From UHGV virus genome UHGV-0009628: 29,410 nt of DNA, one strand, 5' to 3'. Origin of the DNA: a virus. The translations under genes and the position numbers were made by a program. Under the pieces are notes generated by a model. That model was not told where the DNA came from, searched no databases, and worked only from the letters and a program-made list of their open reading frames with translations. Shown in pieces: positions 3,475-9,551 of this stretch (the first letter of the stretch is position 1; each line of letters begins with the position of its first letter).

Positions 3475-3746
3475 GTATTCGTATTGAAATTGGCGAACGT
3501 TATGTCGTTACCAGTGACAGCTTTCAGTTTATTCTCCACGAGAAAAAGAGAGCGGAAAGCGGTAAAAACGCCGGTCAGGAATGGCTGGCGGTGGTTGGTT
3601 ATTATCCGAAATTAAGCCAGCTCGTTTCCGGCCTGATGCATCACGATATTCTGACCGGAAGCGCAAAGTCTTTTGCTGATTTAAACGCGCAGGTTGAGCA
3701 ACTCAGCAGGCGTTGTTCAGAGGCTTTTGGCTCATATGGCCGTTAA
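3471..3746 (+). CDS. Early-operon hypothetical protein (orf83 position)
   Basis: 91 aa, ATG with GGAGAA SD; stop overlaps the start of A. Confidence 0.6.
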   Translation: MSIRIEIGERYVVTSDSFQFILHEKKRAESGKNAGQEWLAVVGYYPKLSQLVSGLMHHDILTGSAKSFADLNAQVEQLSRRCSEAFGSYGR

Positions 3747-5811
3747 AGCCTCCGGGCGTTTTGTCCCTCCTTCAGCATTTGCTGCAGGCACCGGTAAGGC
3801 GTTTACCGGTGCTTATGCATGGAACGCGCCACGCGAGGCCGTCGGGCGCGAAAGACCCCTTACACGTGACGAGATGCGTCAGGTGCAAGGTGTTTTATCC
3901 ACGATTAACCGCCTGCCTTACTTTTTGCGCTCGCTGTTTACTTCACGCTATGACTACATCCGGCGCAATAAAAGCCCGGTACACGGGTTTTATTTCCTCA
4001 CATCCACTTTTCAGCGTCGTTTATGGCCGCGCATTGAGCGTGTGAATCAGCGCCATGAAATGAACACCGACGCGTCGTTACTGTTTCTGGCAGAGCGTGA
4101 CCACTATGCGCGCCTGCCGGGAATGAATGACAAGGAGCTGAAAAAGTTTGCTGCCCGTATCTCATCGCAGCTTTTCATGATGTATGAGGAACTCAGCGAT
4201 GCCTGGGTGGATGCGCATGGCGAAAAAGAATCGCTGTTTACGGATGAGGCGCAGGCTCACCTCTATGGTCATGTTGCTGGCGCTGCACGTGCTTTCAATA
4301 TTTCCCCTCTCTACTGGAAAAAATACCGTAAAGGGCAGATGACCACGAGGCAGGCATATTCTGCCATTGCCCGTCTGTTTAACGATGAGTGGTGGACTCA
4401 TCAGCTTAAAGGCCAGCGTATGCGCTGGCATGAAGCGTTACTGATAGCTGTCGGGGAGGTCAATAAAGACCGTTCTCCTTATGCCAGTAAACACGCCATT
4501 CGTGATGTGCGTGCGCGCCGCCAGGCAAATCTGGAATTTCTTAAATCGTGTGACCTTGAAAACAGGGAAACCGGCGAGCGCATCGACCTTATCAGTAAGG
4601 TGATGGGCAGTATTTCTAATCCTGAAATTCGCCGGATGGAGCTGATGAACACCATTGCCGGTATTGAGCGTTACGCCGCCGCAGAGGGTGATGTGGGGAT
4701 GTTTATCACGCTGACCGCGCCGTCAAAGTATCACCCGACTCGTCAGGTCAGAAAAGGCGAAAGTAAAACCGTTCAGCTTAATCACGGCTGGAACGATGAG
4801 GCATTTAATCCAAAGGATGCGCAGCGTTATCTCTGCCGTATCTGGAGCCTGATGCGCACGGCATTCAAGGATAATGATTTACAGGTCTACGGTTTGCGAG
4901 TCGTCGAGCCACACCACGACGGAACGCCGCACTGGCATATGATGCTTTTTTGTAATCCACGCCAGCGTAACCAGATTATCGAAATCATGCGTCGCTATGC
5001 GCTCAAAGAGGATGGCGACGAAAGAGGAGCCGCGCGAAACCGTTTTCAGGCAAAACATCTTAACCGGGGCGGTGCTGCGGGGTATATCGCGAAATACATC
5101 TCAAAAAACATCGATGGCTATGCACTGGATGGTCAGCTCGATAACGATACCGGCAGGCCGCTGAAAGATACTGCTGCGGCTGTTACCGCATGGGCGTCAA
5201 CGTGGCGCATCCCGCAATTTAAAACGGTTGGCCTGCCGACAATGGGGGCTTACCGTGAACTACGCAAATTGCCTCGCGGCGTCAGCATTGCTGATGAGTT
5301 TGACGAACGAGTTGAGGCTGCACGTGCCGCCGCAGACAGTGGTGATTTTGCGTTGTATATCAGCGCGCAGGGTGGGGCAAATGTTCCGCGTGATTGCCAG
5401 ACTGTCAGAGTCGCCCGTAGCCCGTCGGATGACGTTAACGAGTACGAGGAAGAAGTCGGGAGAGTGGTCGGCATTTACGCGCCGCATCTCGGCGCGCGTC
5501 ATATTCATATCACCAGAACGACGGACTGGCGCATTGTGCCGAAAGTTCCGGTCGTTGAGCCTTTGACTTTAAAAAGCGGCATCGCCGCGCCTCGGAGTCC
5601 TGTCAATAACTGTGGAAAGCTCACTGGTGGTGATACTTCGTTACCGGCTCCCACACCTTCTGAGCACGCTGCAGCAGTGTTGGATTTGATTGATATAGGG
5701 GTGGTTAGTTGGAATGATGCTGAGGTGATGACAGTTCTTAGGAAGAGATTAAAAGATTACTCACGGGAATTGATGGTATTCAAAGGAAGGGCTAGCCAAC
5801 GCCCAATCTGA
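3736..5811 (+). CDS. A: Rolling-circle replication initiator A (phiX174 gpA-like nickase)
   Basis: 691 aa from ATG at 3736 (track start 3694 is TTG). Motifs GTPHWHMMLF (HUH-type metal-binding His pair) and AAGYIAKYISKNIDG (catalytic Tyr pair) typical of RCR initiators; position after orf83 as in P2. Confidence 0.9.
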   Translation: MAVKASGRFVPPSAFAAGTGKAFTGAYAWNAPREAVGRERPLTRDEMRQVQGVLSTINRLPYFLRSLFTSRYDYIRRNKSPVHGFYFLTSTFQRRLWPRIERVNQRHEMNTDASLLFLAERDHYARLPGMNDKELKKFAARISSQLFMMYEELSDAWVDAHGEKESLFTDEAQAHLYGHVAGAARAFNISPLYWKKYRKGQMTTRQAYSAIARLFNDEWWTHQLKGQRMRWHEALLIAVGEVNKDRSPYASKHAIRDVRARRQANLEFLKSCDLENRETGERIDLISKVMGSISNPEIRRMELMNTIAGIERYAAAEGDVGMFITLTAPSKYHPTRQVRKGESKTVQLNHGWNDEAFNPKDAQRYLCRIWSLMRTAFKDNDLQVYGLRVVEPHHDGTPHWHMMLFCNPRQRNQIIEIMRRYALKEDGDERGAARNRFQAKHLNRGGAAGYIAKYISKNIDGYALDGQLDNDTGRPLKDTAAAVTAWASTWRIPQFKTVGLPTMGAYRELRKLPRGVSIADEFDERVEAARAAADSGDFALYISAQGGANVPRDCQTVRVARSPSDDVNEYEEEVGRVVGIYAPHLGARHIHITRTTDWRIVPKVPVVEPLTLKSGIAAPRSPVNNCGKLTGGDTSLPAPTPSEHAAAVLDLIDIGVVSWNDAEVMTVLRKRLKDYSRELMVFKGRASQRPI

Positions 5812-5950
5812 TTATGTTTTGTAATGATAAGTTAATGCTGAATGAGTGGCTCGCGCATAACCTTGCGGGAAAAAGAGCATATTATGTACAGTTTTGAGGT
5901 TGGCTAGAGGGGATGGGCGAGATAGTTTGTGTTTGTGTGGGTTTGAGAAG

Positions 5951-5968
5951 TTTGATGCGCACATCAAA
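5951..5968. promoter_or_regulatory. Perfect 18-bp palindrome TTTGATGcgcaCATCAAA, candidate operator
   Basis: 7-bp inverted arms with a 4-bp spacer, directly upstream of the candidate -35 of the cargo cassette promoter. Confidence 0.35.
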
Positions 5969-5970
5969 AA

Positions 5971-5999
5971 TTGATACAACTGATTGAAAAAATGATAAA
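5971..5999 (+). promoter_or_regulatory. Candidate sigma70 promoter for the cargo cassette (-35 TTGATA 5971-5976, 17-bp spacer, -10 GATAAA 5994-5999)
   Basis: Hexamer match and spacing read from sequence, about 40 bp upstream of the ORF1 ATG, which has an AAGGGGGGAAG SD. Confidence 0.35.
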
Positions 6000-6036: not shown

Positions 6037-7167
6037 ATGAAAAAAATAACCAAGAGAGAAAGAGAGAGAGATATTTTACGATCCTATTTACATCGTACAG
6101 GAAGAGATGTTGTATCTGCAGGGCGCTCTAAGATTAATCCTATTTCAAAAGCATCAAAAATAAATCGTTGGATAAATGCGCAAATTAAAGATGGATTAAA
6201 TTGCGAAATAAGGAAAAATAGAGACCTTTTCCTTACTTTACCTAAAAAGATGAACTTTTCAAGTAATTACCATCGTACAATGCAAGCCATACAAACGATT
6301 AGGCATCTTACAGGGCGGAAGATATTTAATAACCAATGTTACCGTCTTTGTTTTGTTGACTTTTCGAAGATTGAATATATTTCTGCATCTGCCGCATTGG
6401 TATTGACCGCGGAATTATCAAAATGGGATGATTCGGTAAGGCAACGCATTCGCCCAAAAGTGAAAACGTGGAATAAAAACATACTCTCTCAATTTGATGA
6501 GTTGGGTTTTTTTGACTTATTTAGAAATAAAGATAGTTTTGAGCTTGAAAAAGAAAAGGAACCAAGTAATATCCGTTTTGTTAAGTATATGAAAGGACAT
6601 TTACATGATGATGAAAAAACTCAGCATTTAAAAAAAGAAATAAAGCGTATTGTGGGAGAAGACCTTGGTAAATGGACTTTCCTATACAGTGGTTTGTCCG
6701 AAGCTATTACAAATGTTGTTCATCATGCTTATCCAGATAATAAAGGCTATCATGAGCATGATAAAAAATGGTATTTAACTGCTTCATATGATAGTTCAAG
6801 TAGAATAATAAAAGTAGTGTTTTATGATCAAGGTATTACAATTCCTGGGTCTTTGCCGGAATCTAAACTCCATGAAAAGGTTTTAAATTACCTTTCGAAG
6901 TTACCGCTTGCAGAACGAAAAAGAGATGAACAATTGTTAAAGGCTGCAGTTGAAATCAAACGTTCTAGTACGGGGGAAGAGGATCGGGGTAAAGGCTTGC
7001 AGGACTTGTTGGAGTTCATAAAGCAACGTGGTGAAGGTTATCTTTCAATTATGAGTGGTAAAGGCCTTTACAAATACTCACAACATGATAAAAAATCTGA
7101 GGTAAAATCAGTAAGCTTCGCTCTGCCTGTTTGTGGTACACTTATAGTATGGAGTACAAAGCTATGA
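6037..7167 (+). CDS. Cargo ORF1: GHKL-superfamily ATPase/kinase-like protein (C-terminal half resembles RsbW/SpoIIAB-type anti-sigma-factor kinases), N-terminal about 200 aa unknown
   Basis: 376 aa, ATG with strong SD; about 33% GC against a GC-rich backbone. N-box-like LSEAITNVVHHAY (aa 220-232), G1-like YDQGITIPG (aa 262-270), G2-like RGKGLQDLLEF (aa 317-327). Motif-level recognition only. Confidence 0.6.
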   Translation: MKKITKRERERDILRSYLHRTGRDVVSAGRSKINPISKASKINRWINAQIKDGLNCEIRKNRDLFLTLPKKMNFSSNYHRTMQAIQTIRHLTGRKIFNNQCYRLCFVDFSKIEYISASAALVLTAELSKWDDSVRQRIRPKVKTWNKNILSQFDELGFFDLFRNKDSFELEKEKEPSNIRFVKYMKGHLHDDEKTQHLKKEIKRIVGEDLGKWTFLYSGLSEAITNVVHHAYPDNKGYHEHDKKWYLTASYDSSSRIIKVVFYDQGITIPGSLPESKLHEKVLNYLSKLPLAERKRDEQLLKAAVEIKRSSTGEEDRGKGLQDLLEFIKQRGEGYLSIMSGKGLYKYSQHDKKSEVKSVSFALPVCGTLIVWSTKL

Positions 7168-7553
7168 TTACTAGATTGGTTGCTAGCCTCATGAAAACAT
7201 TGAAGATTGGTTCAGAGTTCTCGAAAGTTCCCAGAGGCCGCTATCGTACTGACGGGACAGCAAGTGGTGAACGGTTTAGAGAAGATTTCTTAAGAAAGCG
7301 TCTAAGCTTGCTTTCTGCTGGGGAAAAATTGCAGATAGTCATCGATGATGATGTCGAAGGATATGGTTCGTCTTTTTTGGTGGAGGGCTTTGCGGGCATG
7401 GTAAAATATGGATATATGCATGCCAATGAGTTATTGTCTAAAATTGAAATTAAATATACTAATCCTGATTTTGATTTCTATAAAAAGAAAATAGAACAAT
7501 ATATCAACGAGGCGCAGTTTAATTCGAAACGATATGAGCCAACAGTCGAATAA
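7164..7553 (+). CDS. Cargo ORF2: small STAS-like (DUF4325-like) protein, candidate partner of the ORF1 kinase/ATPase
   Basis: 129 aa from ATG at 7164 (ATGA overlap with ORF1 stop, GGAG SD 10 nt upstream; track start 7131 is TTG). Segment SGERFREDFLRKRLSLLSAGEKLQIVIDDDVEGYGSSFLVEGFAGMV resembles the anti-sigma-antagonist/STAS pattern around the phospho-Ser. Confidence 0.5.
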   Translation: MITRLVASLMKTLKIGSEFSKVPRGRYRTDGTASGERFREDFLRKRLSLLSAGEKLQIVIDDDVEGYGSSFLVEGFAGMVKYGYMHANELLSKIEIKYTNPDFDFYKKKIEQYINEAQFNSKRYEPTVE

Positions 7554-8196
7554 TCCGATGTTTATTTTAGGTGAGGGTTCTGGTGAGTTCTCACCTAGTT
7601 TGCTTTTTATCAAGAAGGATAATGAAGAAGGCCTGAGTGCTACTCATGCAGTTAAGGATATTAATACGATAATTGAAGTAGCTAGTTCTAATATTGTTGA
7701 TGCAATACGGCATCCACCTGAAACGCCTATTTTATCGTCATCACTTATTACGGCTCTTATTAGTACTATTTGTGCGGCCACTGCCGCATTTGCATATAAT
7801 AAAGTCCATTGGCGTTCTGTTGTTAAACGGGAGACTAAAACCAAACTCCTGGAGAGTATTTCAGATGTGGTTAATGAGTTGCGTTCTGATGCTATTAGTT
7901 ATTGGTTGAAGGGGTATTCAAAAAAGTCGGCGAAGTCTCTCTTAGAAGAGGAAATGAGAATTAAGGCGAGTTTAAATATAATAAATTCGACTATAACAAT
8001 ATATGTTCAGCAAGAGTCGCGATGGAAAAGAAAGGATATTGAAGCTCAGTTAAGGGTTTTTCATGACGAACTTTTTGATATTATAACAGGTGATGATTTT
8101 GAGTCTCAGGCAAGGAAGCAGGATAAGGCAAAGGTTTCTGCTATTTCTACAAAGTGTGTGGCTTTTCGCGTTTTATTAAATACCATCAAGTTTTAA
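7534..8196 (+). CDS. Cargo ORF3: single-pass membrane protein, candidate effector
   Basis: 220 aa; overlaps ORF2 by 20 nt; one hydrophobic stretch PILSSSLITALISTICAATAAFAY (aa 65-88) followed by a charged, likely helical C-terminal region. No recognisable catalytic motif. Start could be 7558 instead. Confidence 0.5.
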   Translation: MSQQSNNPMFILGEGSGEFSPSLLFIKKDNEEGLSATHAVKDINTIIEVASSNIVDAIRHPPETPILSSSLITALISTICAATAAFAYNKVHWRSVVKRETKTKLLESISDVVNELRSDAISYWLKGYSKKSAKSLLEEEMRIKASLNIINSTITIYVQQESRWKRKDIEAQLRVFHDELFDIITGDDFESQARKQDKAKVSAISTKCVAFRVLLNTIKF

Positions 8197-8328: not shown

Positions 8329-8347
8329 GGCGAGGCGGGGAAAGCAC
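8329..8347. other. cos site (19-nt cohesive-end sequence of P2 type)
   Basis: GGCGAGGCGGGGAAAGCAC at 8329-8347 matches my recollection of the P2 cohesive end; lies about 170 bp from the 3' end of Q as in P2. A GC hairpin CCGCCC-N8-GGGCGG (8310-8329) abuts it. Confidence 0.6.
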
Positions 8348-8516: not shown

Positions 8517-9551
8517 TCAGCCGTTGTCAGTGTCCAGTGAGTAGTTTTTAAAGCGGATGACCTCCTGACCGAGCCAGCCGTTTATTTCCCGAATCCTGTC
8601 CTGTAACGGGATAAGCTCATTGCGGACAAAGACCTTTGCCACTTTTTCAATATCACCCAGTGACCCGACGTTCTCCGGCTTGCCCCCCATCAACTGAAAG
8701 GGGATGCGGTGCGCGTCCAGCAGGTCAGCGGCGCTGGCTTTTTTGATATTAAAAAAATCGTCCTTCGTCGCCACTTCACTGAGGGGGATAATTTTAATGC
8801 CGTCGGCTTTCCCCTGTGGGGCATAGAGAAACAGGTTTTTAAAGTTGTTGCGGCCTTTCGACTTCACCATGTTTTCGCGGAGCATTTCGATATCGTTGCG
8901 ATCCTGCACGGCATCAGTGACGTACATGATATATCCGGCATGAGCGCCGTTTTCGTAATACTTGCGGCGGAACAGCGTGGCCGACTCATTCAGCCAGGCA
9001 GAATTAAGGGCGCTGAGATATTCCGGCAGGCCGTACAACTCCTGATTAATATCCGGCTCCAGCAGGTGAAACACGGAACCGGGCGCGAAGGCTGTCGGCT
9101 CGTTGAAGGACGGCACCCACCAGTAAACATCCTCTTCCACACCACGGCGGGTATATTTTGCCGGTGAGGTTTCCAGTCTGATGACCTTACCGGTGGTGCT
9201 GTAACGCTTTTCCAGAAACGCATTACCGAACACCAGAAAATCCAGCACAAAGCGGCTGAAATCCTGCTGGGAAAGCCACGGATGCGGGATAAATGTCGAG
9301 GCCAGAATATTGCGTTTGACGTAAATCGGGGAGCTGTGATGCACGGCAGCACGCAGGCTTTTTGCCAGACCGGTAAAGCTGACCGGTGGCTCATACCATC
9401 TGCCGTTACTGATGCACTCGACGTAATCCAGAATGTCACGGCGGTCGAGTACCGGCACCGGCTCACCAAAGGTGAATGCTTCCATTTTCGGGGCGCTGGC
9501 GGTCATTGTTTTTGCCGCAGGTTGCGGTGTTTTCCCTTTTTTCTTGCTCAT
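8517..9551 (-). CDS. Q: Portal protein
   Basis: 344 aa, same length and position as P2 Q; ATG overlaps the P stop (ATGA). Confidence 0.9.
   Translation of the reverse strand: MSKKKGKTPQPAAKTMTASAPKMEAFTFGEPVPVLDRRDILDYVECISNGRWYEPPVSFTGLAKSLRAAVHHSSPIYVKRNILASTFIPHPWLSQQDFSRFVLDFLVFGNAFLEKRYSTTGKVIRLETSPAKYTRRGVEEDVYWWVPSFNEPTAFAPGSVFHLLEPDINQELYGLPEYLSALNSAWLNESATLFRRKYYENGAHAGYIMYVTDAVQDRNDIEMLRENMVKSKGRNNFKNLFLYAPQGKADGIKIIPLSEVATKDDFFNIKKASAADLLDAHRIPFQLMGGKPENVGSLGDIEKVAKVFVRNELIPLQDRIREINGWLGQEVIRFKNYSLDTDNG

Follow-up and report, generated by a model that had tools for sequence, protein, structure and literature searches.

A prophage-borne cassette encoding a kinase-like protein, a STAS-like protein and a predicted membrane protein is a putative relative of VapKSC

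Introduction

What might a kinase-like protein and a small STAS-like protein, encoded side by side with a membrane protein in the cargo region of a P2-like prophage, do for the cell or the phage that carries them? The window analysed here, the whole 29,410-nucleotide (nt) stretch of virus genome UHGV-0009628, is a P2-like prophage with three cargo genes on the same (+) strand, the open reading frames (ORFs) ORF1 ('K'), ORF2 ('S') and ORF3, referred to below as the K-S-TM cassette (TM, transmembrane). The original prediction, made from the DNA letters, took ORF1 and ORF2 for a possible partner-switching module of stress signalling and noted no characterised anti-phage system of such a design. 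One such system has in fact been described. VapKSC is a three-gene, kinase-controlled toxin-antitoxin and anti-phage system that protects against phage Bas42, in which VapK, a STAS-GHKL protein, is proposed to phosphorylate S48 of VapS, a STAS domain with a short C-terminal helix, leading to release of the PIN toxin VapC (Chambers, Rani, Min, Villa and Corbett, EMBO J 2026; PMC13373217). The same paper describes CapK, a helix-turn-helix (HTH)-STAS-GHKL kinase activated by single-stranded DNA (ssDNA), which phosphorylates CapS, a repressor made of a STAS domain and a winged HTH (wHTH); the pair controls adjacent immune operons and responds to DNA damage (PMC13373217). In the literature searched, only Chambers et al. 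link phage defence to a GHKL kinase and a STAS protein. An early sighting of the present-day VapKSC was made by Matelska et al. (NAR 2017; PMC5499597).

The comparisons presented here indicate, at the level of sequence, that the K-S-TM cassette is a relative of VapKSC with a membrane protein in place of the nuclease toxin. The features on which this rests are as follows (coordinates are those of the window; aa, amino acids).

6037..7167, + strand: ORF1 ('K'), 376 aa, with a basic N-terminus, a STAS-like domain and a GHKL kinase-like domain
7164..7553, + strand: ORF2 ('S'), 129 aa, a DUF4325 STAS-like protein (from Pfam, relatives, phrog_5816, an AlphaFold2 model and junction analysis)
7368..7373, + strand: codons of S69 and S70 of ORF2, a candidate phospho-acceptor dyad (from GSS conservation, the model and alignments)
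7534..8196, + strand: ORF3, 220 aa, presumed effector (from locus comparison, alignment and hydropathy)
7729..7797, + strand: aa 66-88 of ORF3, ILSSSLITALISTICAATAAFAY, a predicted transmembrane helix with basic residues after it (from hydropathy alone)

Domain content of the kinase-like and STAS-like proteins

ORF1 consists of a basic helical N-terminal region (aa 1-55), a STAS-like domain (~aa 56-165) and a GHKL domain (~aa 175-376), in which the N-box (E222/N226), the G1 motif (D264-x-G266) and the G2 motif (R317-G318-x-G320) are invariant across the ORF1 alignment. The solved structures nearest to the C-terminal domain are SpoIIAB, RsbW and UsfX, and the best structural matches of ORF1 belong to the serine-kinase branch of GHKL proteins, not to MutL, Hsp90 or gyrase. 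ORF1 scored 16.9 bits against Pfam HATPase_c_2, under the cut-off of 27.4, and its NCBIfam matches were weak, sub-threshold and confined to RsbW and SpoIIAB. Judged by these features, ORF1 is a STAS-GHKL fusion with a predicted SpoIIAB/RsbW-type kinase-like domain, which bears out its original description as kinase-like.

Among the kinases compared, using the VapS, VapK, CapK and CapS sequences taken from the supplementary model and GenBank files of PMC13373217, a hidden Markov model of the ORF1 family scored VapK at 15.5 bits and SpoIIAB at 3.4 bits, and hhalign aligned the ORF1 family with VapK over 150 columns of the GHKL domain at 81% probability. Moreover, ORF1 (4e-45), VapK (3.6e-38) and CapK (1.5e-12) all match phrog_3364, both domains being covered for ORF1 and VapK. 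The link between ORF1 and CapK is drawn from this common family, since the hhalign match to CapK was weak (41% probability, N-box to G1 region only).

The STAS-like domain of ORF1 also carries two invariant serines, I-S116-x-S118 (6379-6390, aa 115-118; consensus ISTSAALVLTAE), at the STAS phospho-site position, which hints at a role in autophosphorylation or as a pseudo-substrate.

ORF2 had been read as STAS-like from the peptide LQIVIDDDVEGYGSSFLVEGFAGMV, which corresponds to its residues 56-80. This reading is upheld by Pfam, in which ORF2 matches PF14213 (DUF4325) at 24.1 bits (gathering cut-off, 23; E=3e-5), residues 35-102 aligning with profile positions 2-62 of 64, and by its aligned relatives, all 39 of which match DUF4325 (best 1e-7) and none any other Pfam family. 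RefSeq likewise names the ORF2 protein STAS-like domain-containing. Identity remains at 50-60% with relatives from other orders, and the family shares the invariant core G68 S69 S70 F71 L72 E74 G75 F76 A77 G78, the GSS being kept in 115 of 120 homologues. In the AlphaFold2 model (predicted local distance difference test score, pLDDT, 79), a strand at 56-60 is followed by a helix at 69-81, the N-terminus of which is the S69-S70 dyad. In the alignments, S69 pairs with S48 of VapS and S58 of SpoIIAA, and S70 pairs with S54 of CapS and is the sole dyad serine retained by a Helicobacter homologue. The candidate phospho-acceptor is S69 or S70, and the alignments do not choose between the two.

VapS itself matches DUF4325 at 62.7 bits, and the protein AS1_40 of Marinobacter phage AS1 bridges the ORF2 and VapS groups, scoring 50 bits against the ORF2 profile and 43 bits against DUF4325. 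ORF2 is linked to VapS through this Pfam family and this bridging protein, the direct hhalign comparison being non-significant. In addition, ORF2 matches phrog_5816 (E=3e-9) exclusively at profile positions 340-439 of 441, the C-terminal ~100, and a 'HATPase_c | DUF4325' entry is listed for P4 hotspots in Tables S1 and S5 of Rousset et al. (Cell Host Microbe 2022), suggesting that certain elements may encode the kinase and the STAS-like part as a single fusion protein.

At the junction of the two genes, the ORF2 ATG (7164-7166) overlaps the ORF1 stop TGA (7165-7167) to form ATGA, as originally described, and a GGAG lies at 7151-7154, 9 nt 5' of the ATG. This overlap, with the 9-codon extension of ORF2 that it entails, is retained only by an enterobacterial clade and is the start picked by the Prokaryotic Genome Annotation Pipeline (PGAP). 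The start of the wider family is the Met of MKTL(N/K)IG, 12-22 nt past the ORF1 stop, which is M10 here (ATG 7191). Distant cassettes (loci L004 and L007, phage AS1 and a Helicobacter prophage) also show stop/start overlaps of 1-4 nt, and ORF1 and ORF2 are tightly linked whichever ORF2 start is real.

The third gene

ORF3 has an N-terminus that is variable or absent among its relatives, a single hydrophobic helix with basic residues after it, and a helical C-terminal domain of ~130 aa that is conserved and contains the motifs HW[KR], YW and [FY]DxxTGxxFE. The maximum of the 19-residue Kyte-Doolittle plot is 1.78 for ORF3 and 1.3-2.45 for 17 homologues. The helical domain probably faces the cytoplasm, and the variable N-terminal segment is probably periplasmic. 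No family in Pfam, the PDB or PADLOC was matched by ORF3; together with 14 aligned homologues it gave 0 PIN matches and no consistent Pfam match, and the family profiles of ORF1, ORF2 and ORF3 returned nothing meaningful when run against PDB sequences. All 201 representative ORF3 relatives are 138-275 aa long, with 0 fusions to other domains. Over the same loci, ORF3 is 21-27% identical, as against ~50-60% for ORF1 and ORF2.

RefSeq starts ORF3 at M9 (7558, 212 aa), where the ATG is ATA in a Raoultella cassette (L001). The upstream ATG (7534), 20 nt inside ORF2, is conserved in that cassette, and because of this difference the 220-aa form is more likely to be the product than the 212-aa form.

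Just past the ORF2 stop, within the 5' end of ORF3, lies a 14-pair hairpin followed by a T-rich run (7567-7598; -19.3 kcal/mol, z=-2.2). The Raoultella copy retains the outer stem and shows G-to-A changes in the inner stem that preserve pairing. This hairpin could lower the expression of ORF3 relative to ORF2, or it could be coincidental; as a terminator-like attenuator of ORF3 it was set aside, being weakly supported by its z score and located within coding sequence.

Conservation of the cassette across genomes

A scan with the ORF2 profile, with one genome taken per species, yielded 17 loci, and in 16 of them ORF1, ORF2 and ORF3 stand in the same order, in Gammaproteobacteria, Betaproteobacteria and Desulfobacterota. 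These three are the sole gene families common to more than three of the 17 loci. Two loci are again P2-like prophages, and the other contexts are unrelated (smc/zipA, carB, aconitase, ribonucleotide reductase and SNF2-Mrr). ORF1, ORF2 and ORF3 form a self-contained cassette. The full cassette is present in 15 of 5,426 complete Escherichia coli genomes at an identity of at least 98.5%, with the portal gene adjacent in all of them; ORF2 was found on 681 contigs and ORF1 on 568.

The arrangement also occurs in other phages. Marinobacter phage AS1 (L018:3336-5262, AS1_41/40/39) and a Helicobacter prophage (L019:3456-5030) each encode a kinase-like protein, a DUF4325 protein and a small protein with an N-terminal TM segment in this order, with 4-nt gene overlaps; the AS1 cassette adjoins cI/cro, and AS1_39 matches the ORF3 profile (E=2.6e-7). 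In Francisella phage KIRK, Fhv_0046-0048, adjoining CI, are listed as a 293-aa hypothetical protein (best hit, phage AS1), a 112-aa DUF4325 protein and a 125-aa TM protein, a likeness that concerns the gene-size pattern of the published gene table.

A lone ORF2-like DUF4325 gene was observed at L017:7938-8327, on a phage-like, high-coverage contig (JADGDF010000004) of a Thiotrichaceae metagenome-assembled genome (MAG) that also encodes a protein with a baseplate-spike domain and a GpA terminase. Within 8 kb of it there is no homologue of ORF1 or ORF3. This gene is without the last ~12 residues and is 70% identical to the homologue in a complete cassette of the same MAG (L005), compared with 54-63% to the others compared. 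Its role may be that of a decoy by which the phage counters the cassette.

Genomic location

The cassette lies between the following features of the window.

3694..5811, + strand: left flank, P2-type replication endonuclease gene (gene A) (from the ORF list, RefSeq annotation and the GC drop)
5943..5971, + strand: weak promoter-like site TTGAGA-17-AAAAAT upstream of ORF1 (consensus scan, 9/12 matches)
8329..8347, + strand: cos-like 19-mer GGCGAGGCGGGGAAAGCAC, right end of the cargo hotspot (exact match)
8517..9551, - strand: right flank, P2-type portal gene (Q), with the terminase after it (from the ORF list; RefSeq 'phage portal protein' and 'terminase ATPase subunit')

The cargo is a ~2.6 kb segment of low GC content (35-38%, versus 48-56% in the flanks). 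The 19-mer, the putative P2 cohesive end, has one exact match in the window, between ORF3 and the portal gene, and 0 in 100 shuffles. GC drops from ~5650, placing the last ~50 codons of gene A (5650-5811) within the AT-rich cargo DNA, and RefSeq labels gene A of a near-identical prophage a replication endonuclease that is incomplete and missing its C-terminus. It seems that the junction for cargo exchange falls within gene A, and the prophage may have an A protein that is altered or defective. In the consensus scan, promoter-like sites in the region were not more numerous than in shuffled sequences.

The region between gene A and cos/portal corresponds to the tin/old hotspot, in which P2-like phages carry cargo (Rousset et al. 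2022). The original placement of the gene pair in a phage exclusion hotspot beside a membrane protein stands, ORF3 being a predicted single-pass membrane protein. RefSeq labels the three products, from ORF1 to ORF3, 'hypothetical/ATP-binding protein', 'DUF4325 domain-containing protein' and 'hypothetical protein', and no match to the DNA of the cassette came up among deposited phage genomes.

Proposed mechanism and alternatives

Since K and S are homologous to VapK and VapS and ORF3 occupies the position of VapC, we propose, with moderate confidence, that K-S-TM acts by a VapKSC-like, kinase-gated release of a membrane effector that aborts infection. In a resting cell, unphosphorylated ORF2 would bind and restrain ORF3 or its cytoplasmic domain. 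Activation of ORF1 would come from an infection cue, perhaps ssDNA as for CapK and VapK, and ORF1 would then phosphorylate ORF2 on S69 or S70, whereupon phospho-ORF2 would let go of ORF3. Once freed, ORF3 might target the inner membrane, which it could, for instance, depolarise after oligomerising, so that the infected cell would stop growing or die and the incoming phage would be excluded.

Several results weigh against this proposal. On the side of ORF2, the Pfam score exceeds the cut-off by a mere ~1 bit, and the hhalign comparison with a 37-sequence alignment of the VapS family was not significant (2.4% probability, pairwise E 0.019), nor was any significant match found between the ORF2 family and the single VapS or CapS sequences. 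The membrane helix of ORF3 is predicted from hydropathy alone, with one homologue reaching only 1.30, and no likeness of ORF3 to known toxins or pore formers was found. None of the three proteins matched the protein models of PADLOC-DB v2.0.0, the sole defence library scanned, at E<=1, and most of the non-prophage loci lie outside obvious defence islands. Finally, F54 of VapK, the residue that stacks on ssDNA, has as its counterpart, aligned by eye, Y114 in ORF1 and K, E or S in the relatives. As this position is not conserved, the trigger may differ from that of VapK. CapK, for its part, needs W68 for activation by ssDNA (PMC13373217), and in a single MAFFT alignment this residue ('AWID') coincides with the nearly invariant W45 of ORF1 ('RWI[DN]'), upstream of the STAS domain, a putative correspondence that serves as a lead only.

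The lack of a conserved aromatic at the ssDNA position is also compatible with ORF3 standing at the other end of the pathway, as a sensor or anchor that would pass a membrane event (phage DNA injection or envelope stress) to the kinase, with phospho-ORF2 or ORF1 then acting on a target encoded elsewhere. ORF3 evolves far faster than ORF1 and ORF2, and its N-terminal, probably periplasmic, segment is hypervariable or absent, both of which are often seen in arms-race sensors. However, it is the membrane helix and the presumed cytoplasmic domain of ORF3 that are conserved, not the variable N-terminus; ORF3 holds the place of the toxin in the VapKSC order, no other effector is conserved nearby, and abortive-infection effectors are commonly small single-pass membrane proteins (Rousset et al. 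2022). A sensor role is therefore regarded as unlikely.

The location raises another alternative, namely that the cassette serves the prophage without killing the cell, either through superinfection exclusion by ORF3 or with K-S as a DNA-damage-responsive prophage regulator. In P2 the same site houses the exclusion genes tin and old, the AS1 and KIRK cassettes adjoin the cI/cro immunity region, and CapK/CapS provides a precedent for a kinase-STAS regulator responding to DNA damage. Against these stand the absence from ORF2 of a DNA-binding domain like that of CapS, and the finding that most of the 16 full-cassette loci lie outside recognisable prophages, which argues for a function independent of the phage life cycle. 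We consider a prophage-serving role improbable.

Canonical partner-switching, the module originally suggested, would have ORF1 hold a transcription factor until unphosphorylated ORF2 displaced it, the switch being set by phosphorylation and dephosphorylation. What survives of this suggestion is the pairing of a kinase-like and a STAS-like protein: SpoIIAB, RsbW and UsfX are the closest structures to the C-terminal domain of ORF1, the weak NCBIfam matches are to RsbW and SpoIIAB, and ORF2 is a single-domain STAS-like protein with a serine dyad at the expected phospho position. What does not survive is the circuit around it, since across the 17 loci, which share ORF1-3 only, the cassette is not accompanied by a conserved sigma factor, other kinase-bound target or PP2C phosphatase. 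Moreover, the cassette moves among unrelated hosts and phages, making a host-specific sigma partner unlikely, and its nearest characterised homologues, CapK and VapK, work without partner exchange on the kinase. A host phosphatase could nevertheless reset ORF2. Judging by the homology to VapKSC, the kinase probably frees a STAS protein from the partner to which it is bound, rather than driving an exchange on an anti-sigma factor, and canonical partner-switching is very unlikely. Least probable of all is that ORF1 is an ATPase or ATP-binding scaffold devoid of protein-kinase activity and that the conserved serines of ORF2 are structural, for although GHKL domains are often ATPases and the HATPase_c_2 match falls under its cut-off, the best structural matches are to serine kinases, the homologues CapK and VapK phosphorylate the STAS serine or are required for that phosphorylation, and the GSS dyad is invariant exactly at the phospho-site.

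If kinase-gated release of ORF3 is correct, the serine-kinase/STAS switch would be a modular trigger that is not peculiar to one nuclease toxin-antitoxin and also drives membrane effectors, and temperate phages of Escherichia, Marinobacter, Helicobacter and Francisella would carry this switch in exclusion hotspots. It would also give a function to two families that at present bear the label 'hypothetical' as well as to one branch of DUF4325, add a defence type unrecognised by PADLOC v2.0.0, and offer a simple test case for phosphorylation unlocking a membrane toxin. More tentatively, and with appreciably less confidence, K-S-TM might represent a widespread prophage-borne family of abortive-infection systems, in which a CapK/VapK-type kinase gates a new single-pass membrane effector via a divergent DUF4325 'antitoxin', the kinase-STAS pair being a swappable trigger for a repressor, a PIN nuclease or a membrane protein, and the lone S gene of the Thiotrichaceae MAG being an instance of decoy counter-defence in some phages.

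Comparison with known systems

Loci recorded as 'hypothetical + hypothetical + DUF4325' and 'HATPase_c | DUF4325' in P2/P4 hotspots (Rousset et al., Tables S1 and S5) are very probably the K-S-TM cassette and its relatives, as they share its hotspot and domain content. They differ in that, within the tables available from that study, they are catalogued only, DUF4325 and HATPase being absent from the tables of tested and validated systems; in the available part of the supplements, none of the ORF1, ORF2 and ORF3 protein sequences was found. The cassette was also considered as the validated P2 system described there as 'three genes with no clear predicted domain', which is unlikely. That system is most likely a different one, because neither DUF4325 nor HATPase figures in the available tables of tested and validated systems and no PADLOC model was matched.

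Compared with SpoIIAB/SpoIIAA/sigma-F, RsbW/RsbV/sigma-B and SiaB/SiaC, the cassette has no conserved sigma factor or PP2C phosphatase, and it further differs from partner-switching modules in that the ORF1 kinase-like protein bears its own STAS domain and the cassette is mobile and prophage-borne. CapK is closer, being about equal in length to ORF1 (368 versus 376 aa) and a member of the same phrog_3364 family, and the phosphorylated serine of CapS lies within a DSSF motif that aligns with GSSF of ORF2. ORF2, however, consists of DUF4325 only (129 aa) and has no wHTH or other DNA-binding domain, for which reason a CapS-like repressor role was rejected; nor is there an immune operon downstream, where ORF3 is followed by cos and the portal gene here and by unrelated genes at other loci. 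Having neither the PIN toxin of VapKSC nor the wHTH and downstream immune operon of CapK/CapS, the cassette should not be filed as either, and its gain over the published VapKSC and CapK/CapS work is incremental, not conceptual.

In summary, VapKSC is the system that the cassette most resembles. Its third gene encodes a predicted single-pass membrane protein of no known family instead of the PIN nuclease VapC, ORF1 has an extra basic N-terminal region of ~55 aa and no conserved aromatic counterpart of VapK F54, and the ORF2 family forms a divergent branch of DUF4325 with its own invariant core, GYGSSFLVEGFAG. Both systems nevertheless consist of a STAS-GHKL kinase gene directly followed by a DUF4325 STAS gene, with tight coupling of the genes, and ORF2, being free of a DNA-binding domain, resembles VapS rather than CapS.

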